From assembly GCA_017453245.1 (NCBI GenBank), contig JAFTKM010000020.1, forward strand, positions 877-64,876: DNA of 64,000 nucleotides. The letters run 5' to 3'. Under the pieces are notes generated by a model. The model searched no databases and was not told the DNA's origin. It saw nothing but the letters and a program-made list of their open reading frames with translations. Both the position numbers and the translations under genes were made by a program. Below are positions 1 to 34,967 of the stretch, piece by piece. Position 1 is the first letter of the stretch; the number at the start of each line of letters is the position of its first letter. Origin of the DNA: Clostridia bacterium (GTDB lineage Bacteria > Bacillota > Clostridia > Oscillospirales > CAG-272).

Positions 1-310
1 GATATACTACTGCGCCGAGAGAAATGAGAAGGGTAATAAAAATTGAATTATCTAGATCACGCAAAATATACCACGCACGCATGATAAAGCCCATTGCGAC
101 AGCACTCAAGGCAAAGCAAAACAGGTTAACTTTTGTTCGTTCGCGAACGATGAGTGCGATTATTCCGCTTATTGCGAGGATCACTATGCCGATAATAAGC
201 GGCAAAGTGGCTTTATTTCCAATAAACAACCCCTTTGAAAGACGTGCCACAACCGAGCAAATCAATAGAAATAAGAACGATGCAGCAGAGACAACGGTGA
301 TTTTTTTCAT
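1..310 (-). CDS. hypothetical membrane protein, N-terminal part only (gene continues past left edge)
   Basis: Minus-strand ATG at 310-308 preceded by AAGGAGA. Translation MKKITVVSAASFLFLLICSVVARLSKGLFIGNKATLPLIIGIVILAISGIIALIV... stays open to position 2 and is hydrophobic. The + ORF 24..350 in the track is its shadow. Confidence 0.55.
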   Translation of the reverse strand, partial: MKKITVVSAASFLFLLICSVVARLSKGLFIGNKATLPLIIGIVILAISGIIALIVRERTKVNLFCFALSAVAMGFIMRAWYILRDLDNSIFITLLISLGAVVY

Positions 311-419
311 ACTCATTCTCCTTTCATTGTCTATTCATATAATAATATGAAGAAAAACGGTTGTCAAGCAAACATATGAATTGTTTATATTCTTTTTACA
401 AAAAACTTAGAAAGACCTA

Positions 420-448
420 TTGACAAAAGGATTTTTATCTGCTATAAT
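420..448 (+). promoter_or_regulatory. sigma-A type promoter of the tRNA cluster
   Basis: TTGACA 420-425, 17-nt spacer, TATAAT 443-448, 15 nt upstream of tRNA-Val. Confidence 0.6.
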
Positions 449-463
449 AGTCAAGCGAAAGAC

Positions 464-539
464 GGAAGGTTAGCTCAGTTGGGAGAGCATCTGCCTTACA
501 AGCAGAGGGTCACAGGTTCGAGCCCTGTACTTTCCACCA
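464..539 (+). tRNA. tRNA-Val (anticodon TAC), CCA encoded
   Basis: Hand-folded cloverleaf: acceptor GGAAGGT/ACTTTCC, D arm GCTCAGTTGGGAGAGC, anticodon stem TCTGC/GCAGA with loop CTTACAA, T arm ACAGG-TTCGAGC-CCTGT, ACCA end. Confidence 0.9.
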
Positions 540-579
540 TAGGAAAAATATGAGGCACAATGTTCGCTGAGAACAATCG

Positions 580-682
580 GGCTCGAAGTAGGAGCGGTAG
601 TGAATGACAGTTAATAACTGTCAGAGCCGCGAATGACCGAGCGCGCAGTTCGCGCGAGAGTCGAGCCCTGTACTTTCCACCA
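580..682 (+). repeat. structured repeat copy 1, ending in an exact duplicate of the tRNA-Val 3' end
   Basis: GGCTCGAAGTAGGAGCGGTA, then hairpin 606-622, then GAGCCGCGAATGACCGAGCGCGCAGTTCGCGCGAGAG. Positions 661-682 are identical to 518-539 of tRNA-Val (22/22). Confidence 0.85.
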
Positions 683-706
683 CGGGAGAAATCCCATACG
701 AAAAAT

Positions 707-783
707 GGCTTGGTAGCTCAGTTGGTTAGAGCGCTAGCCTGTCACGCTAGAGGTCGTGGGTTCGAGCCCCATCCGAGTCGCCA
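707..783 (+). tRNA. tRNA-Asp (anticodon GTC), CCA encoded
   Basis: Acceptor GGCTTGG/CCGAGTC, anticodon stem CTAGC/GCTAG with loop CTGTCAC, T arm GTGGG-TTCGAGC-CCCAT, GCCA end. Confidence 0.9.
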
Positions 784-802
784 TTTTTCGATAAACTCAG
801 AT

Positions 803-907
803 GGCTCGAAGTAGGAGCGGTACTGAATAACAGTCCGGTGGACTGTTAGAGCCGCGAATGACCGAGCGCGCAGTTCGCGCGAGAGTCGAGCCCCATCCGA
901 GTCGCCA
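803..907 (+). repeat. structured repeat copy 2, ending in an exact duplicate of the tRNA-Asp 3' end
   Basis: Same 5' 20 nt and 3' ~37 nt as copy 1, with a different but still perfectly paired hairpin (829-847). Positions 886-907 are identical to 762-783 of tRNA-Asp. Confidence 0.85.
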
Positions 908-927
908 TTCTCAAATTAATATGCCAC

Positions 928-1003
928 GCGGATTTAGCTCATTTGGTAGAGCGCCACCTTGCCAAGGTGGAGGTGGCGGGTTCGAGCCCCGTAATCCGCT
1001 CCA
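928..1003 (+). tRNA. tRNA-Gly (anticodon GCC), CCA encoded
   Basis: Acceptor GCGGATT/AATCCGC, anticodon stem CCACC/GGTGG with loop TTGCCAA, T arm GCGGG-TTCGAGC-CCCGT, TCCA end. Confidence 0.9.
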
Positions 1004-1012
1004 TAAAAGACA

Positions 1013-1039
1013 CCCCGAGTTCACTCGGGGTTGTTTTTT
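1013..1039 (+). terminator. rho-independent terminator
   Basis: CCCCGAG-TTCA-CTCGGGG followed by TTGTTTTTT. Confidence 0.75.
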
Positions 1040-1052
1040 ATCTTCGATTTGG

Positions 1053-1214
1053 GGCTCGAACGAGTTTGAGTTCCATTCGAGTCGCATAGTCCTGAGTCTT
1101 CGTCTTCGCAAGTCTCCGACTTGCCTCACTCCTTGCTTTGTCGAACATCGCTCACAAAAGCAACACTCAGTTGTTTTTGTATCGCTAACCCGTAATCCGC
1201 TCCATAAAAGACAC
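1053..1214. repeat. structured repeat copy 3 (divergent, inverted relative to copies 1 and 2), ending in a duplicate of the tRNA-Gly 3' end plus flank
   Basis: Positions 1189-1214 are identical to 988-1013 (26/26). The core, about 1070-1187, aligns to the reverse complement of 33768-33887 with blocks of 9/10 and 29/36 identity. Confidence 0.75.
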
Positions 1215-1242
1215 TCGACGAGGGTGTCTTTTTTCTTTTTTT
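1208..1242 (+). terminator. rho-independent terminator (probably the original tRNA-Gly terminator)
   Basis: AAGACAC-TCGACGAGG-GTGTCTT followed by a long T run. The 5' arm lies inside the duplicated flank. Confidence 0.7.
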
Positions 1243-1613
1243 CGGTAATAGCAACCTTTCAAACAAACGCGTTACCTGCCATATAACTTAACTATCCAGA
1301 GAGGAACTGTCGGATTGAATATATTTGACAACCGGTAGGGAAGTGTGCATGCAAATTTCGGATCAGGAGTCAAAAACGGGCGTAAATAACTTTTTCTTCC
1401 TATTATATCAATCGCGCGAGAGGGTGTAGAAAATCTGTCAAAGTTTTCAAGGTATGCATATAAAAGCGCATGAATGAATATTCTGCATAAAAAATGATAG
1501 AAAATATGGTAATTATAACTAAAATGCCAATGGATTTTTTGGCAATAATCACCTAAAATTCAATAGATTAATAAAACGAAGAAGGGTATTACAAACTCTC
1601 ATACCCAAAACTC

Positions 1614-1641
1614 TTGACAAAAAGGTATTTATGGGTTATAA
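1614..1641 (+). promoter_or_regulatory. sigma-A type promoter upstream of the SBP gene
   Basis: TTGACA 1614-1619, 16-nt spacer, TATAAT 1636-1641. Confidence 0.55.
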
Positions 1642-1820
1642 TGTTGCTATCATTTTTATTTTATCAAATCGATGAATATTCGATGAATGAAATGAATTTT
1701 TATGCACTGCATATTTACAAATCAGATGCATAAGATAAGGAGCAAATGCTCCGAATTACTTAGTATATATTGGCGAGTGACGCTGTATATAAAATAATAA
1801 CTCTTTGGAGGAAAAGAAAA

Positions 1821-4460
1821 ATGAGTAAGAAAATAATAAGCTTACTTCTCGTTCTCATCATGCTCGTTGGATGCTTCGCTAGCTGCGGTATATTCAAGAA
1901 GCCTGATAACGGTGACAATGAGAACAACGAAAACAATGACAACAACGATGAGCTTGTTATCAAGGAAGGCGACTTTACTTATAAGTCTTGGGCGTCTGCG
2001 CTTGGTACGAACTGGAACCCTCACACGTGGGAGAACGACGCCGATAGCGCAATGATGGGCTACATCGAGTCTCCCCTTGTTGACCTATCCGTTCTTAATA
2101 GCGAAGAAGGCACATATCAGTGGGTTTATGAGATGGCTACTTCCATCACTGACGTAACTGCTGCAAATCAGGCAGACCTTACCAAGTACGGTTCTGTTCT
2201 TCCCGCGGGTAAGACTGCTGCTGACGTGACTGACAGTTACGTATATGAGATTAAGCTCAATCCTAATGCTAAGTGGCAGAATGGCGACCCCATCAATGCC
2301 GATACTTACATCTACTCTATGCAGATGCTTCTCGATTCCAGAATGAGAAACTACCGTGCAAACAACTATATTGACGGTTCTTCTGCTCTTGCAGGCGCTA
2401 TGGGTTACTATAACTCTGAGGCTCCTATCTATTCGCCTACCATCAACTACAATGGTAATGAAAGAGTTCCAGTTGAGCTTCCTGAGGGCACGGACGTTTA
2501 TCTTTCTCTTACTGCTGAGAACATGACTATGGCAAGCTATAGCTTCCAGTTCATGCTTGATTATTATGTTGACGAGGATCTTTACAACGCTCTCAAGGAG
2601 CAGGCTAACGGTTACGGCTACATCAAGGTTACCGAAGATAATCTTAGCGATATCATCACCATTTGTGATCAGTATCTTAGGGCGTTTGGCGCAGATATCT
2701 GGGTTTGGGACTTTATTGAGTCTGCAGAAGGCGAGTACGTTTGGTCTGAGGAAGACGGCGATTACGTTTCTGTAGAGGAAGGTCAGACCGGAACTCATAC
2801 TTACGCACAGGTTCTTGTTGACGGCGAGCCCGTTGTTAACCAGGAGTATCTTGAAGAATTCTTCTTCTATATTTCCGGCTACGGTGAGAAGGTAGAGTGG
2901 GATGCAGTTGGTCTTTACAAGGTTGACGATTACACCATCCGTTACGTATGTAAGACCGCTTACGAGTACAATTACTTCCTTACCTCATGTACCTCTAACT
3001 GGATCGTTCACAAGAAGACCTACGAGGAAAACATGAAGGAAGAGGGCGGCATGCTCGTAACTACTTATGGTACTTCCAAGGATACCACTATGTCCTACGG
3101 TCCTTATAAGATGACCAACTTCGAGGACGACAAGCAGGTTGTTTACGTTCAGAACGAGAACTGGTACGGATATCAGAAGACTGAGTCCGGTTACCTCTAC
3201 TCTGTTACCAACTTTGAGGTTGACGGCAAGAACGTTCAGCAGTATCAGACTACCAAGCTCATCATCGATGTTATGACTCAGGACGCCGCTTACTCCAGAT
3301 TCCTTGCAGGTGAGCTTACAGATTACGCTCCTACCGCTGACGAGCTTACTGAGTATAACCTTTCTGACAGACTTTACAGAGTTGACGAAACCTACACGAT
3401 GAGATGGTTCTTCAACTGTGCGGAGACTACTCTTAAGACTCTTGACACCCAGAACAACCAGAACTCCATCGTTCTTTCTAACTACAACTTCCGTAAGGCA
3501 ATGAGCCTTGCAATCAACAGAGCTGATTTCGTAACCGCTACTGAGGGCTGGAAGCCTGCGTACTCCCTTATGAACCAGCTTTACTACTACGACGTTTACA
3601 ACGATCCTACCTCCTCCTACAGAAACTCCGATGTTGCTATGCAGGCTATCTGTAACCTCTACGGTGTTAAGTACGGCGAAGGAACCATTTATCCTACTCT
3701 TGAGGACGCATACAAGTCCATTACAGGTTACAATCTCACCGAGGCTAAGGCTCTCATGAAGACCGCTTGTGAAGAGCTTGTTGCTGCAGGTCTTTACACC
3801 GCAGGCCAGAACATTAAGATCCAGATTGCTTGGAAGGCAGGCGCACTTGAGGATGCTGATAACGCTCAGCTCGCTAAGCTCAACCAGTACCTTAACGCAG
3901 CTCTTGAGGGCTCCGGATTCGGCACCATCGAGTTTGAGGCAGTCGGTAGCCTTTCCACGAGATATGACGACGTAATCGCTGGCAAGTATGCTATCGGTTG
4001 GGGCGCATGGGGCGGCGCAGCATTCTATCCCTTCGGTATGATGCAGTGCTACATGGATCCTGACTACACCAAGATTCACGAGAGCGGATGCTGGTCTCCT
4101 GCTACCGAGACTCTTACTCTTACCTTCGTTAACTCTAATGGCGAGACTGTTACTGATACTCTTACATGGCAGATTTGGTCTCAGTCCCTTGAGGGTACCG
4201 GTAAGTACGCTACCGAGGACAACGATGTTAAGCTCGCTATCCTTGCACTCCTTGAGGAGAAGTATCTTGGTCAGTACTACTGCATTCCTATGGCAGGAAC
4301 TACCGTTTGTTCGCTTCTTTCCTACCAGGTAGACGAGTACACTCAGGACTACAACATTATGTATAGCTTCGGTGGTTTCCGTCTTATGACTTGGAACTAC
4401 ACTGACGCAGAGTGGACCACATATGTTCAGTCTCAGGGTGGCACCCTTAACTACAAGTAA
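1821..4460 (+). CDS. ABC transporter substrate-binding lipoprotein, family 5 (OppA/DppA-like), unusually large (~879 aa)
   Basis: GGAGG 8 nt before the ATG at 1821. Lipoprotein signal MSKKIISLLLVLIMLVGCFASCG. Family-5 SBP-like sequence, followed by OppBCDF-like genes. The track start at 1770 lacks an RBS. Confidence 0.8.
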   Translation: MSKKIISLLLVLIMLVGCFASCGIFKKPDNGDNENNENNDNNDELVIKEGDFTYKSWASALGTNWNPHTWENDADSAMMGYIESPLVDLSVLNSEEGTYQWVYEMATSITDVTAANQADLTKYGSVLPAGKTAADVTDSYVYEIKLNPNAKWQNGDPINADTYIYSMQMLLDSRMRNYRANNYIDGSSALAGAMGYYNSEAPIYSPTINYNGNERVPVELPEGTDVYLSLTAENMTMASYSFQFMLDYYVDEDLYNALKEQANGYGYIKVTEDNLSDIITICDQYLRAFGADIWVWDFIESAEGEYVWSEEDGDYVSVEEGQTGTHTYAQVLVDGEPVVNQEYLEEFFFYISGYGEKVEWDAVGLYKVDDYTIRYVCKTAYEYNYFLTSCTSNWIVHKKTYEENMKEEGGMLVTTYGTSKDTTMSYGPYKMTNFEDDKQVVYVQNENWYGYQKTESGYLYSVTNFEVDGKNVQQYQTTKLIIDVMTQDAAYSRFLAGELTDYAPTADELTEYNLSDRLYRVDETYTMRWFFNCAETTLKTLDTQNNQNSIVLSNYNFRKAMSLAINRADFVTATEGWKPAYSLMNQLYYYDVYNDPTSSYRNSDVAMQAICNLYGVKYGEGTIYPTLEDAYKSITGYNLTEAKALMKTACEELVAAGLYTAGQNIKIQIAWKAGALEDADNAQLAKLNQYLNAALEGSGFGTIEFEAVGSLSTRYDDVIAGKYAIGWGAWGGAAFYPFGMMQCYMDPDYTKIHESGCWSPATETLTLTFVNSNGETVTDTLTWQIWSQSLEGTGKYATEDNDVKLAILALLEEKYLGQYYCIPMAGTTVCSLLSYQVDEYTQDYNIMYSFGGFRLMTWNYTDAEWTTYVQSQGGTLNYK

Positions 4461-4503
4461 TTTTTCAATTAGATTAAGTTGAAAATTTGACTTTATTGCG
4501 AAT

Positions 4504-4542
4504 AATGGGAGAATTCACATTCTCCCATTGTTTGCGTTTTTT
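4504..4542 (+). terminator. rho-independent terminator or attenuator after the SBP gene
   Basis: AATGGGAGAAT-TCAC-ATTCTCCCATT followed by GTTTGCGTTTTTT. Confidence 0.75.
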
Positions 4543-4631
4543 AGCCGTGGAAAAATGACCGATATTTCAAGGTTTTTTAAGAAAACTTGCATTTGTTCAG
4601 GTTAACATCCCCTCGCCCAAGTTCCGTATTT

Positions 4632-4689
4632 GGACGCGGAGCTGTTAGTCTGTCCTAAAACGCGCGACACGTTCGCGTAGAGTCCGGAC
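4632..4689 (+). repeat. degenerate partial copy of the structured repeat family
   Basis: CGCGCGACACGTTCGCGTAGAGTCCGGAC (4661-4689) parallels GCGCGCAGTTCGCGCGAGAGTCGAGCC of copies 1 and 2. Upstream, GGAGCTGTTAGTCTGTCC parallels GGACTGTTAGAGCC. Confidence 0.4.
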
Positions 4690-4713
4690 ACTACGCAAAG
4701 AAAGGATGAAAAA

Positions 4714-5679
4714 ATGATTAAGTATGTAATTAAAAGACTGATACTTATGTTGATAGCATTATTCTGTATCTCTACAATATGCTTCGTAATGATCAGACTT
4801 TTGCCTATGGTACCTCCGGAAGGAGTTAATGCGGCGCAGACAAAGGTTATTGAAGACATTTGGGAAGCGAGAGGCTATAACAAGCCCATTCTCGTTCAGT
4901 ATGGTATTTATCTTAAGGATATCTTTACCGAGTTTGACTTCGGTACCTCCTGGAAGATAAAGTCAACCTATCCTGTAACCGAGGTATTCTTCCCCCGTTT
5001 GATTCCTACCATTCTTGTGAATCTCTATTCTCTTCTTCTTGCCATACCGCTTGGTATAGCCTTCGGTATATACGCGGCTATCAAGAAGAACAAGTGGCAG
5101 GACCATCTCATTAGCACTATGGTTATGCTCTTTGTATCCGTTCCCAGCTACGTATACGCGTTCCTTGTGCAGTATTTCTTGTACTTCAAGCTCAGATGGT
5201 TCCCTGATACCATCTATTCTCTTGCTGATGCTGGTGGATCTTATTTGACTTGGAAGATGTTCTACAGTATGATTCCTCCGATTCTCGCGCTTTCTTTCGG
5301 TACAGTTGCGGGACTTACAAGATTTACCAGGGCGGAGCTTACCGAGACCCTCACTCAGGATTATATGCTTCTTGCACGTACTAAAGGTTTGACTCGCAGC
5401 CAGGCTACCACGCGTCACGCGCTCAAGAACGCGATGGTGCCGATTCTTCCTATGATCATATCCAGCTTTATCGGAATTCTCTCCGGCTCTATGATCATTG
5501 AGCAGATATTCGCTATTCCCGGCATTGGACAGCTGTACGTCAGAGCGGTACAGCAGCTTGACTACGACGTATTTATGCTTGATAGTATCTTCTATACCTT
5601 CGTAGGACTTCTTGCGGGTATAGTGGTTGATATAAGTTATGGATTTATTGATCCTAGAATTAGAATGGGAGAAAGATAA
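4714..5679 (+). CDS. ABC transporter permease (OppB/DppB-like)
   Basis: N-terminus MIKYVIKRLILMLIALF is typical of OppB. Multi-TM protein with the binding-protein-dependent transport motif region (TKGLTRSQATTRHALKNAMVPILP). Confidence 0.85.
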   Translation: MIKYVIKRLILMLIALFCISTICFVMIRLLPMVPPEGVNAAQTKVIEDIWEARGYNKPILVQYGIYLKDIFTEFDFGTSWKIKSTYPVTEVFFPRLIPTILVNLYSLLLAIPLGIAFGIYAAIKKNKWQDHLISTMVMLFVSVPSYVYAFLVQYFLYFKLRWFPDTIYSLADAGGSYLTWKMFYSMIPPILALSFGTVAGLTRFTRAELTETLTQDYMLLARTKGLTRSQATTRHALKNAMVPILPMIISSFIGILSGSMIIEQIFAIPGIGQLYVRAVQQLDYDVFMLDSIFYTFVGLLAGIVVDISYGFIDPRIRMGER

Positions 5680-5680
5680 T

Positions 5681-7285
5681 ATGGCAAAAGAATTGAATAT
5701 TAACTTGATCCCTAAGGAAAAGCTTGTCTTTGCCAACACGGGCGAGAAGATAAGGGATCAGAAATTTGAAGATAAGCCGATTGGATATTTCCATGATGCT
5801 TGGAATCGTTTTTGCAAAAACAAGGCGTCTATTGTAGCCGCTTTAATCATTATTTGTATAATTTTGTTTGCAATTATAGTGCCTTTCTTCAATGCGAGCG
5901 GCAGCGGTACCAGCGCAGACACTAGATACATGAAGAAAACTCCACGTAATCTTCTTCTTTCTAAAATCGGAATTGCCACAGGCTATGAGACTAGCGAGTA
6001 CCGTGATACCGCACTTATCCAGTTTGCAGCTATCGGTATTGGTTCAAGAGAGGATCTTCTGAACATTCCTACCATTGGAGATGCTCTTGCGGAGGACGAC
6101 TTCCTTCAGCCTGTTAAAAAGATCAACGACTCTTACTCCGTACAACAGGGTAAGAATAAGACTCTCTTCTACGATGCGACCGTAGATACTTATCTTCAGG
6201 TAGGATTCACGTATGAGTACGTTGAGCAGAGCGAGTATGCAAAGATTCTCGCTTGGCAGGAAGAGACAGGCATTCAGGTTCTCTATCCTATGATTGCGGA
6301 GAATGAATATAACTTCTATTATTCTACCAGCGGCGTATCCGATCCGAACTGGTGGTATAAGACCAACAACAAGGGTCAGCCTGTTCGTATCAATCAGTCC
6401 GGAAACGCGACCACTATCAAGTACAATGATATTTCCGAGGTCAAACTCGTTGACAACTATATGCGCGACTCTGAGGGTAATCTTAAGTATTGGACCTACT
6501 CGGGTGGTGGAGATGACACCACTGCTATGTATAAGGTGAGAGTTCTTTACTACAACTACTATCGTTACAACCACGACGGCAGAGAGCCTCAGTTTATTTT
6601 CGGTACTGACAGCGTAGGTTATGATCTTGCTTATCGTATGGCTATCGGTATTCGTCTAAGCCTTATCCTCTCCGTTTGTATATTCGCTATTAACTTCATT
6701 CTCGGCGCTATTTACGGCTCTATCGAGGGTTACTACGGCGGTGCTGCCGATCTTACGATGGAGTTTATCAGCTATATTCTTTCGGGTATCCCCTTCATCG
6801 TTGTATCCACCTTGTTCCAAATGCATCTGGCCGCCAAGGTCGGACCGATACCAAGCTTACTGTTCGCATTCGTTCTGACCGGATGGATAGGTACGGCGAG
6901 CCTTGTAAGAACTCAGTTCTACAGATTTAAGAATCAGGAATACGTTATGGCGGCGAGAACTCTTGGCGCACGTGACAGAAGAATTATTCTTAAGCATATA
7001 TTCCCGAACACGCTCGGTACGATCATTACCTCGTCCGTTCTTGCTATTCCGGGTGTTATCTTCTCCGAATCTATGCTCTCATACCTCGGTATAGTTAACC
7101 TCGGTGGAACAAAGACTACCTCTCTCGGTACGCTCCTTTCTGATGCGTCCACTATCTGGAAGTCTGTTCCTCACCTTATGCTATTCCCGGCAGCGGTTAT
7201 ATCGTTGCTTATGATATGCTTCAACCTGTTCGGCAACGGTCTTCGTGACGCATTCAATCCATCGCTAAGAGGAGTGGAGGAGTAA
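5681..7285 (+). CDS. ABC transporter permease (OppC/DppC-like) with a ~260-aa extracytoplasmic loop after TM1
   Basis: The ATG at 5681 follows GGGAGAAAG and the upstream stop. The C-terminal half is OppC-like (RTLGARDRRIILKHIFPNTLG). Confidence 0.8.
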   Translation: MAKELNINLIPKEKLVFANTGEKIRDQKFEDKPIGYFHDAWNRFCKNKASIVAALIIICIILFAIIVPFFNASGSGTSADTRYMKKTPRNLLLSKIGIATGYETSEYRDTALIQFAAIGIGSREDLLNIPTIGDALAEDDFLQPVKKINDSYSVQQGKNKTLFYDATVDTYLQVGFTYEYVEQSEYAKILAWQEETGIQVLYPMIAENEYNFYYSTSGVSDPNWWYKTNNKGQPVRINQSGNATTIKYNDISEVKLVDNYMRDSEGNLKYWTYSGGGDDTTAMYKVRVLYYNYYRYNHDGREPQFIFGTDSVGYDLAYRMAIGIRLSLILSVCIFAINFILGAIYGSIEGYYGGAADLTMEFISYILSGIPFIVVSTLFQMHLAAKVGPIPSLLFAFVLTGWIGTASLVRTQFYRFKNQEYVMAARTLGARDRRIILKHIFPNTLGTIITSSVLAIPGVIFSESMLSYLGIVNLGGTKTTSLGTLLSDASTIWKSVPHLMLFPAAVISLLMICFNLFGNGLRDAFNPSLRGVEE

Positions 7286-33637: not shown

Positions 33638-33767
33638 GCTATAACCTATGATGCTATAGGAAATCCTCTTAGTTATTACAACGGTTCCAGCTACACCTTC
33701 ACGTGGGATGGACGTAGGCTTGCTACCGCTGTTAAGGGCTCCAATTCTATGTCCTTTACATACAATG
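33638..33767 (+). pseudogene. 5' homology arm of the orphan rhs module (no start codon)
   Basis: Nucleotide homology to 31698-31827 of the main rhs gene (AITYD.IGNPLSYYNGSSY.FTWDGRRLATAVKGSNSMSFTYN). Begins abruptly and is out of frame with the downstream part. Confidence 0.8.
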
Positions 33768-33887
33768 TAGACAAGCAAAAACAATTGAGTATTGTTTTTG
33801 TGAAGTTGAAACCGCCCAAAGCAAGGAGCGGGCAGAGCCGTAGACTTGCGAAGGCGATAGTACGCGACTATGCGACGGTGGCGTAAA
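33768..33887 (+). repeat. structured repeat copy 4, inserted in the orphan rhs module
   Basis: ~120 nt that is absent from the equivalent point of the main rhs gene (31828-31836). Its reverse complement aligns with 1070-1187. It contains GGAGCGG and CAGAGCCG core words as in copies 1 and 2. Confidence 0.75.
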
Positions 33888-34967
33888 GGACTTAGAGTGA
33901 CTAAAACCGTTAATGACGTTGCAACTACTTACTATTACCAAGGCTCGCTTCTTATAGCGGAAGAAACGAATTCGCAAATATTAGTTTACATATATGGTAC
34001 TAACGGTTCACCTGTGGGCTTTAAGTACAGAGGCGCGGATTACGAAAGTGGCGTTTGGGATGCTTATGCTTATGAGAAAAACATTCAGGGAGATATTGTT
34101 GCGGTATATGATGCATCTACAGGTACAAAGCTGATATCCTATAGATATAACGCTTGGGGCGTATGCAGCCCTACGTATCATAACAGTGGCTCTACCACTA
34201 CAGCAACCAAGAACCCGTTTAAGTACAGAGGATATTACTATGACTCCGATCTCGGATTGTATTATCTGCAGAGTAGGTACTACGATCAGAACACCGGTAG
34301 GTTTATCTCTCCCGACTCCTTAATGTCCGGTGTAAACGGAAGTCTCCACGGCTTTAACCTTTACGCATATTGCTTCAATAATCCTATTTCGTTTATAGAC
34401 TCCGAAGGCAATTGGCCTACGAAGGAAGAAGTTTACAAGTGGATTGAGAATAAGAGAGATGAAGCTGAAGAAGTATGGAATGATGTAACTGAATGGGTAG
34501 AAAATAAAGTTTCAGAAATAGGAGCAGGCTCTGCAGGCGTAAGTCTTAGTTTTACATATGATCATGTGCTTGTAAACGTACAGGTTGGAATAGCAAAAGA
34601 TCGGCAAGGCAATAAAGATCTTCAAATATCGATTTCCTCGGGTTCGACCAGCGCGGCATATGGTTTATTCATCGGAGGGTATTCTACAATAACAAATGCC
34701 CCGAGTGTTGACAAACTTACTGGTGGCTATAGTCAGGTAGGTGGTTCATATGGTTCTTTGGCATATGGATTGCCTGTGGCTGGAGGTGTAGATGTAATAA
34801 AAATGAATGATGCAGATACGAATGACATTTATCACGGATTATCTTTTTCAGGAGGATTTGGAACGCCTGGAGTAGAAGCTCATTTTGGAACTGGAACTAC
34901 GTTTTCATATACTGGTGTTGTTGATACTTATAATCAAGTAATTAATTTTTTTGATGATCTACGTTAA
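33870..34967 (+). CDS. orphan RHS C-terminal fragment (core end plus an alternative toxin tip)
   Basis: High identity to rhs residues LRVTKTVNGVVTTYYYQGSLLIAEETNSQILVYIY...YRGYYYDS.LGLYYLQSRYYD, then a different Gly-rich tip. The ATG lies inside the inserted repeat and there is no good RBS, so expression is doubtful. Confidence 0.7.
   Translation: MRRWRKGLRVTKTVNDVATTYYYQGSLLIAEETNSQILVYIYGTNGSPVGFKYRGADYESGVWDAYAYEKNIQGDIVAVYDASTGTKLISYRYNAWGVCSPTYHNSGSTTTATKNPFKYRGYYYDSDLGLYYLQSRYYDQNTGRFISPDSLMSGVNGSLHGFNLYAYCFNNPISFIDSEGNWPTKEEVYKWIENKRDEAEEVWNDVTEWVENKVSEIGAGSAGVSLSFTYDHVLVNVQVGIAKDRQGNKDLQISISSGSTSAAYGLFIGGYSTITNAPSVDKLTGGYSQVGGSYGSLAYGLPVAGGVDVIKMNDADTNDIYHGLSFSGGFGTPGVEAHFGTGTTFSYTGVVDTYNQVINFFDDLR

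Follow-up and report, generated by a model that had tools for sequence, protein, structure and literature searches.

We analyzed a 64,000-nucleotide stretch of DNA from a Clostridia bacterium (Oscillospirales; CAG-272; assembly GCA_017453245.1, contig JAFTKM010000020.1, positions 877 to 64,876), referred to here as the window, and focused on a short repeat that occurs twice within its tRNA-Val-Asp-Gly operon. Both copies belong to a family of folded elements, ~100 nt long, that is widespread in gut Clostridia and apparently undescribed; its closing helix is formed with a duplicated tRNA 3′ end. The operon lies on the + strand and begins with a promoter at 420-448 (TTGACA-17-TATAAT, 12/12 matches), followed by tRNA-Val(TAC) at 464-539, tRNA-Asp(GTC) at 707-783, and tRNA-Gly(GCC) at 928-1003, with a terminator after the last gene at 1012-1041. 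Copy 1 of the repeat follows the Val gene and copy 2 follows the Asp gene. Because no terminator occurs between the promoter and position 1012, both copies lie inside the primary transcript of the operon.

In copy 1, positions 55-76 of tRNA-Val (518-539) are followed by a non-conserved gap (540-578), which is homologous to the gap in orthologous Val elements (loci L152 and L153) and has no terminator, as the site is internal to the operon. Helix P1 is formed by the left arm GGGCTCGA (579-586), whose sequence is the reverse complement of tRNA positions 55-62, and its partner strand at 661-668. The core (587-660) comprises the joining strand J1 (AGTAGGA, 587-593), helix P2 (594-597 pairing with 627-630), an internal loop resembling a kink-turn (k-turn; TAGTGAAT, 598-605, opposite AGAG at 623-626), hairpin 1 (606-622, GACAGTT-AAT-AACTGTC), the joining strand J2 (GAATGACCGA, 631-640), hairpin 2 (641-655, GCGCG-CAGTT-CGCGC), and a terminal GAGAG (656-660). 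Positions 661-682 then exactly duplicate positions 55-76 of tRNA-Val (TCGAGCCCTGTACTTTCCACCA), and the native Val-Asp spacer comes next. Copy 2 has the same layout, with a left arm GGCTCGA at 803-809 pairing with 886-892 as P1, a core at 810-885 containing P2 (817-820 with 852-855), hairpin 1 (829-847, AACAGTCC-GGT-GGACTGTT), hairpin 2 (866-880) and GAGAG (881-885), and an exact duplicate of tRNA-Asp positions 55-76 (TCGAGCCCCATCCGAGTCGCCA) at 886-907. The family covariance model R1 matches copy 1 at 573-682 (110 bits, E 1e-28) and copy 2 at 796-907 (108 bits, E 5e-28).

An earlier sequence-only reading of the window had described copy 1 (580-660) and copy 2 (803-885) as sharing the block GGCTCGAAGTAGGAGCGGTA and a 37-nt block, GAGCCGCGAATGACCGAGCGCGCAGTTCGCGCGAGAG, and we confirmed both; the 37-nt block has exactly two matches in the window and none in 100 shuffles. 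Hairpin 1, where the copies mainly differ, is, as described there, a perfect stem in both copies, with the outer pair changed from G-C to A-T and the inner TT/AA to TCC/GGA, and hairpin 2 is found in both. One further difference had been missed: G600 of copy 1 is replaced by C823 of copy 2 in the unpaired TAGTGAAT/TACTGAAT stretch. The closing helix made with the duplicated tRNA 3′ end had also gone unseen. A supposed degenerate copy at 4661-4680 is not supported as a member of the family, as the covariance model, run with filters off, gave no match there at E<=10; the stretch at ~4661, GCGCGACACGTTCGCGTAGAGTC, resembles only ~25 nt of the 3′ part of the repeat.

Family distribution, fold and covariation

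A pattern scan of species-representative genomes, most of them incomplete metagenome-assembled genomes (MAGs), returned 118 loci, of which ~110 are true copies. The carriers are about 60 genomes, nearly all of them MAGs assigned to Acutalibacteraceae, Clostridia or Eubacteriales and derived from the guts of ruminants and other animals, with 1-9 strict-pattern copies per genome. Within the window's genus, the R1 model detects the element in 25 of the 31 genomes; a further copy is carried by one Oscillospirales phage. Comparison with Rfam 15 at E<=1 gave tRNAs as the only matches in positions 1-6000 of the window, and four viral contigs bearing the core had no Rfam match. A literature search, limited in scope, found no description of the element.

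On one strand, a three-way junction composed of P1, P2 with hairpin 1, and hairpin 2 arises when the left arm and core fold together with the initial 8-11 nt of the tRNA fragment. Across 36 diverse copies, 93.4% of cells in P1, P2 and hairpin 1 were paired, compared with 79.3% for shuffled partners (0/500 shuffles reached the observed value) and 30-43% for partners slid out of register. A larger set of 109 copies, whose alignment was fitted to the covariance model and so favours structure somewhat, gave 96.3% paired against 80.8% in shuffles (0/500), with slid controls at 32-45%. In this set, 15 of 22 pairs changed on both sides, over 350 cells, an extent that was reached by 0/500 shuffles. 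All eight pairs of hairpin 1 show both-sided changes and P1 is 93.6% paired. P2 switches between copies from GCGG/CCGC to GCCG/CGGC, and 25 different versions of the hairpin 2 stem, along with loops that vary, occur among 101 copies. The strands that join these helices (AGTAGGA, TAGTGAAT/AGAG, GAATGACCGA and GAGAG) are nearly invariant, and the element ends in 101 copies read ...GGGAYTYGA/AGTAGG and GAGAG/TCRANNCC.

From the two window copies, the sequence-only reading had proposed selection on an RNA or single-stranded DNA structure, with alignment of more copies as the check. Two copies alone offer weak statistics; the family settles the compensatory reading, with three helices kept through many compensatory changes and joining strands that hardly vary. 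Freely varying stems beside invariant junctions point to a single-stranded substrate rather than to double-stranded protein-binding palindromes. We sought an excess of G.U wobbles in the helices as an RNA signature and found G.U to be no commoner than A.C mismatches; the helices therefore give no RNA-specific signal, and RNA and single-stranded DNA are not distinguishable here. Even where selection is absent, intrastrand template switching in DNA palindromes can change both sides of a pair. In the main subtype, the TAGTGAAT/AGAG loop is compatible with a kink-turn (GCGGU-AGU-GA.../...GA-GCCGC, with G30 and A31 invariant), and the Lys/Trp and UGUAA subtypes lack it.

Duplicated tRNA 3′ ends and insertion at the T-loop

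A tRNA gene lies 24-75 nt upstream of 74 copies, and these genes represent >20 isoacceptors. The fragment that follows the core duplicates tRNA positions 55-76, from the T-loop to CCA, with a matching tail in 55 of the 74 copies. In 48 of the 74, identity with the tRNA begins exactly 22 nt before the CCA end, right after G53-T54, and it mostly stops at CCA. The left arm, the first 8-11 nt of the element, is the reverse complement of tRNA positions 55-65: Watson-Crick complementarity holds for 98% of cells at positions 55-62, dropping to 78%, 66% and 43% over the next three positions (63-65) and to a random level after that. We therefore rejected the idea that the left arm is an inverted copy of the whole 22 nt, since complementarity in an ungapped register is random past position 65. 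The two strands of P1 in the window read GGGCTCGA/TCGAGCCC at Val and GGCTCGA/TCGAGCC at Asp, and further copies in the same genome follow tRNA-Lys (GGTTCGA/TCGAATC) and tRNA-Trp (GACTTGA/TCAAGTC). With different arms at Val, Asp, Lys and Trp, the closing helix thus co-varies with the tRNA. The rest of the fragment, from position 66 to 76, is left unpaired, and no acceptor-like stem is formed.

The fragment still matches its neighbouring tRNA exactly in cases where orthologous copies differ from one another in other parts, as in L153 and the window (CCTAT vs CCTGT). In chimeric copies such as L019 and L059, the left arm fits the upstream tRNA and the fragment comes from another tRNA, as expected from recombination between two cores. 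The exact end at CCA in most copies had suggested a fragment copied from mature tRNA. We rejected this origin because several duplications extend 3-10 nt into the trailer, and such extension beyond CCA implies a DNA-level event.

Comparison of orthologous loci reveals insertion polymorphism. Within the genus, Val-Asp-(Phe)-Gly operons are empty in genome G356 and several others, and filled in the window, G351, G340, G341, G355, G332 and G333, with the element after Val, after Asp, or after both. In every compared operon, the native spacer comes after the fragment. The Asp site of several genomes holds a divergent relative, A′, with the same helices and different joining strands; hairpin 1 is missing in one A′ copy. 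At tRNA-Trp, the empty site of G336 runs from the tRNA to a terminator and then an island, and G000 has the tRNA, then a new terminator, spacer, left arm, core and fragment, then the same terminator and island as G336. This comparison shows that the unit brings its own terminator, and it rules out a native origin for the terminator between tRNA and element. Most copies lie directly behind a terminator, which fits a role as DNA. Operon-internal units, including both window copies, have no terminator of their own, which fits selection against blocking of downstream tRNAs.

The canonical unit measures 140-160 nt. At about one third of loci the element is bracketed by terminators that are related to each other; tandem arrays repeating every ~160 nt account for many of these cases. 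Other, unrelated core families occur at the same position in the same arrays, and family B, described below, is one example. On contig 13 of G000 (C13), we found a 1.35-kb unit with a promoter and a 121-aa open reading frame (ORF), which ends in the same half-terminator, spacer, left arm and core and is followed by a third copy of the Trp fragment. In light of this cargo-bearing unit, the 140-160-nt units look like cargo-less cassettes. Separately, small four-helix-bundle proteins of PF05635, the 23S rRNA intervening-sequence protein family that includes Avd of diversity-generating retroelements, recur as cargo at tRNA-end hot spots (L162 in G351, L164 in G027, L120 and L075; E 1e-19 to 1e-25).

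The phage copy, in PV036458.1 (Oscillospirales, 75 kb), is complete (78 bits with R1, E ~1e-19). Its unit has one terminator at each end and, between them, left arm GGGCTCGA and the core, followed by a 55-76 fragment that is tRNA-Leu-like; the phage record contains no tRNA gene. The copy (L173:5900-6150; PV036458.1, 62330-62580) forms a small self-contained unit between the early genes and a leftward gene block. A promoter-like site (TTGCAA-17-TAAAAT) lies 60 nt upstream of it, a terminator-like hairpin precedes it and a strong terminator follows. We sought related phages without the copy to define the unit at a naive site, and the PV036458.1 record was the only match.

In our preferred reading, to which we give about an even chance of being right, the repeat is the conserved, structured right-end module of small site-specific mobile cassettes that insert at the tRNA T-loop, between positions 54 and 55. 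This reading is suggested by the exact 54/55 boundary, the tRNA-preserving duplication, the unit's own terminator, the arrays and cargo units, presence and absence among relatives, and the phage copy. An inserted unit would carry, in order, a copy of tRNA positions 55-76, optional cargo, its own terminator if the tRNA is last in its operon, a spacer, the left arm, and the ~75-nt core; the displaced native 55-76 and native downstream DNA would come after it. The tRNA would stay intact and each insertion would recreate the target, so that arrays can build up. The fold would serve as the recognition site for a trans-acting recombinase or transposase on single-stranded DNA, like integron attC or the folded attP of CTX phage, and P1 would mimic the duplex of the tRNA gene's T-arm region. 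The left arm may be matched to each new tRNA by selection, or by template-switch correction inside the hairpin. The fold with its covariation, the exact 22-nt duplication, the polymorphic insertion, the arrays, the cargo unit and the phage copy are observed; the choice of DNA as the relevant strand, the reading of the fold by a recombinase and the route by which left arms become matched are inferred.

Weighing the cassette reading against its rivals

Several findings weigh against the cassette reading, and some concern the enzyme. Among 656 clustered ORFs around the ~110 copies, there is no recurrent recombinase or transposase. A large serine recombinase neighbours the element at 4 loci and belongs to another element. 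Y1 transposases (PF01797) occur in 9 of the 31 genus genomes and are absent from the richest carriers, with no PF01797 in G000, G333, G351 and G353, which carry 4-14 copies; this RAYT/Y1 negative is weak evidence because the MAGs are incomplete. The phage encodes no recombinases beyond two large serine recombinases, which lie 13 kb away from the element. Other findings concern the element itself. Both window copies are certainly co-transcribed with tRNAs, given the positions of promoter and terminator; the main subtype carries the k-turn-like loop, an RNA motif; and related cores occur away from tRNAs with other closing stems, as the inner core (P2, loop, hairpin 1, TGACCGAG...) is also present in dispersed repeats of high-GC viral contigs and of G000 (family C). 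Finally, the reading has to account for how one conserved core would gain matching left arms at >20 different tRNAs.

The most serious rival is a structured non-coding RNA, an explanation that we consider rather unlikely overall. The element would be expressed by co-transcription, or by terminator read-through from the strong tRNA promoter, and its 3′ part would be a tRNA 3′-end copy with a free ...NCCA tail that could act as a mimic, decoy or regulator of tRNA-3′-end readers such as processing nucleases, the CCA-adding enzyme or tRNA-targeting toxins. Its weight comes from the transcription of the window copies with their tRNAs, between the operon promoter and the first terminator, and from the fragment's continued identity to its tRNA despite divergence elsewhere. 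Joining strands that do not vary and a k-turn-like loop are features commonly seen in RNA, a promoter-like site lies upstream of the phage copy, and fold z-scores range from -1.1 to -2.8. Set against this, a terminator directly precedes most copies, the helices lack a G.U excess over A.C, the unpaired positions 66-76 leave no acceptor-like stem, the Lys/Trp subtype does without the k-turn-like loop, and Rfam gave no match. Moreover, the arrays and the presence or absence among close relatives point to a dispensable, mobile feature.

We regard it as improbable that the element is an RNA- or DNA-guided mobile element, with the core as scaffold and with the left arm (complementary to T-loop positions 55-64) or the 22-nt fragment steering a trans-encoded enzyme to the tRNA gene that matches. 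IS110 bridge RNA, the guide-cleavage-site pairing of IS200/IS605, TnpB omega-RNA and the tRNA-homing crRNAs of type V-K CRISPR transposons would be the analogues. A target-identical 22-mer directly after a conserved scaffold, preceded in the tRNA by G53-T54, is what such a guide might look like. The left arm also fits the upstream tRNA, and not the fragment, in chimeras L019 and L059, and the family B left arm is still complementary to the Gly T-loop though its own fragment lacks positions 55-60. However, no IS110, TnpB, Cas12k or Tn7 genes were linked to copies among the neighbouring ORFs; the variable parts of the core are stems rather than guide-holding loops; an intact target is always left beside the would-be guide; and insertion falls 0-10 bp past the 22-mer, compared with 50-66 bp in CRISPR transposons. 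A fixed insertion distance of the CRISPR-transposon kind was rejected, as gap lengths range from 24 to 75 nt and CCA is immediately followed by the insert.

Similarly doubtful is the view that these repeats are ordinary att scars, namely attR ends left by internal deletion of integrase-driven prophages or integrative and conjugative elements (ICEs) at tRNA 3′ ends, with the hairpins as palindromic protein sites in double-stranded DNA. A direct repeat of the tRNA 3′ end around an insert is the classic attL/attR footprint, the phage genome holds its copy in an attP-like arrangement, and islands and ICE ends adjoin several copies. Against this view, one nearly identical core is found at >20 different tRNAs, often several times per genome, which a fixed attP cannot explain. 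The stems change freely and stay paired, the opposite of sequence-specific sites in double-stranded DNA, the 140-160-nt unit is the canonical form rather than a rare remnant, and no tyrosine integrase is adjacent to copies, either among the neighbouring ORFs or in the phage.

Least probable of all, and in our view very unlikely, is a selfish palindromic repeat without structural function, spread by recombination and with paired changes arising from quasi-palindrome template switching in replication: the many nested hairpin repeats of these genomes, including insertions into the hairpin-1 loop, and the missing wobble signature agree with it, but joining strands nearly invariant across ~60 genomes and a phage beside variable stems, the exact 54/55 boundary, and a three-helix architecture kept in the divergent A′ and C repeats and the phage copy do not.

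Known systems, related repeats and wider meaning

Of the known systems, integron attC sites offer close parallels to the proposed cassettes: structure is conserved far beyond stem sequence, as seen by covariation, each unit has the site at its 3′ end, arrays beside a fixed primary site contain units both with and without an ORF, and the sequence to the right of the crossover is that of the next unit. The element differs in having no RYYYAAC/GTTRRRY core sites at the ends of the 101 copies inspected, in forming a three-way junction where attC is a single bulged hairpin, and in its primary site, a tRNA T-loop of which 22 nt are carried or duplicated and for which the closing stem is rewritten per tRNA. 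No intI tyrosine recombinase occurs among the 656 neighbouring ORFs of the ~110 loci.

In CTX phage, two inverted target-like arms ~90 nt apart form the integration site; the target is dif, the enzyme XerCD, and the substrate single-stranded DNA. The folded attP(+) of CTX and of integrative mobile elements exploiting Xer (IMEX) thus resembles the element, which has inverted target-like arms ~75-90 nt apart that can pair on one strand, and which also ends up with both arms together at one element end after integration, encodes no recombinase, and commonly forms tandem arrays. Unlike these systems, the element targets the tRNA T-loop instead of dif, has no filamentous-phage genes, and has a single-stranded stage only as a proposal.

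tRNA 3′ ends are classic landing pads of genomic islands, and the units found there are normally large, with their own integrase. Islands, phages and ICEs of the class with attB in the T-loop share with the element the identity block from T-loop to CCA, restoration of the tRNA with the displaced 3′ end left as a direct repeat, and tandem accretion. The element's units, in contrast, are only 140-160 nt long, have no integrase, use one core at >20 tRNA species, and carry a left arm complementary to the target.

Similarity to other systems is more partial. REP/REPIN, BIME and structured miniature repeats are likewise short, multi-copy, hairpin-forming and intergenic, with compensatory changes, mutual nesting and location downstream of terminators. 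The element is distinguished from them by its strict specificity for tRNA 54/55, its 22-nt target duplication, and the lack of correlation between RAYT/Y1 and its presence. Cas1-type integration (CRISPR repeat duplication, and casposons at tRNA 3′ ends) also produces a fixed-length target duplication beside a "leader", here the tRNA body, and target-insert-target arrays; the element's inserts, however, are conserved structured elements without terminal inverted repeats, and a link to Cas1 was neither looked for nor seen. A classical miniature inverted-repeat transposable element has fixed terminal inverted repeats and a 2-10 bp duplication, whereas the arms of the element change with the tRNA and its duplication is 22-32 bp. 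TnpB/IscB omega-RNA and IS110 bridge RNA are similar only in their scaffold-then-flank geometry, and no cognate nuclease or recombinase gene is linked to copies.

Related and unrelated repeats also surround the family. Family B, a second, unrelated core family with the same geometry, occupies 1053-1214 (+ strand) of the window, after the Gly gene. Its core (1053-1188) is different, its left arm GGGGCTCGA (1052-1060) complements the T-loop of the Gly gene, and 26 nt from the 3′ end of that gene and its trailer are duplicated at 1189-1214; the sequence contains ...GTCGCATAGTC...CTCCTTGCTTTG...AACACTCAGTTGTTTTT... in that order. Other family B sites lie at 33700-33960 (- strand) of the window and at C27:174380-174760, C13:380-720 and C13:40030-40160 of G000. 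The C27 site is flanked by an imperfect ~26-nt direct duplication of a protein gene's last codons and stop. In C13, family B interrupts a tRNA-Lys pseudogene within its T-loop, and it also interrupts a copy of the present element (family A) within the loop of hairpin 1. The family C repeat (GTAGCGAAGCGAAACCGAGGGTATTGAATGAGAGTCCGGTGGACTCTCAGACCCCGAGGTGACCGAGCCCGCAGGCGAGAC) has the inner architecture in common with the element and no tRNA fragment; its copies in G000 (C7:1-330, C20:1-330, C19:1-260, C11:35560-35820, C12:11740-11990, C21:5330-5620, C26:20080-20400 and C9:15760-15940) include several that carry nested insertions and coincide with contig ends.

The hairpin-1 loop was a target of insertion or recombination three times in G000. 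A segment duplicated at C9:24180-24500 and C4:125100-125426 (- strand) contains a partial tRNA-Lys, a terminator and the element's left half; it stops inside the hairpin-1 loop (CCGGTGGA/TGAGG...) and then runs into another repeat. A hairpin repeat, TTTGCTATTCGTCGGTCGGACACGACGAATGACGCAAGATACCGCAAGCGGTATGC, has many copies in G000 (~10 in C27 from 220445 to 272041, and others at C9:24200-24260 and C13:300-450) and interrupts the anticodon arm of partial tRNA-Lys copies. Another hairpin, TTGAGTATTCATAAGGGATTTGACCTGTGAATACTCAA, or its split halves flank elements that encode small proteins of ICE type (MS..IEDFYYGNIEPQE...) and a large serine recombinase of 558 aa. This hairpin is found after the fragment at L063, L124 and L130 and before the element at L084, L112 and L129. 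It probably serves as att site for a different integrating element, one that makes use of these terminators. Islands after tRNA 3′ ends show, in this order, a terminator, a dyad-symmetric mini-hairpin array, a promoter and small genes, and the arrays are punctuated by 9-10-nt words (ATATCATCA / TGATGATAT, ACATCATTTG, GTGAAATA). Such islands lie at C13:38870-39030 and C15:170-400 of G000, the latter just upstream of the window, and after tRNA-Trp at L162, L164, L166 and L168. Their arrays resemble iterons or the end-binding sites of integrating elements of another class.

More broadly, we tentatively suggest, as a possibility in which our confidence is limited, that gut Clostridia may have a cassette system in which the T-loop of any tRNA gene would be a universal primary attachment site. 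Cassettes, empty or with accessory genes, would be captured via a folded three-way-junction site whose closing stem is re-matched per tRNA, by a recombinase that is host-encoded or supplied in trans. Such a system would parallel integrons and CTX-type integration and be a member of neither. A ~100-nt module with one of the clearest covariation signals obtained from genomes only marks >20 tRNA genes in uncultured gut Clostridia and a phage. Whichever reading holds, its covariance model can serve to annotate att scars that lack an integrase. If it is an RNA, it would be a new class that carries a tRNA 3′-end copy. If it is a recombination site, it would represent a compact, tRNA-programmable insertion signal and a new way of building accessory-gene arrays in a dominant group of gut bacteria.

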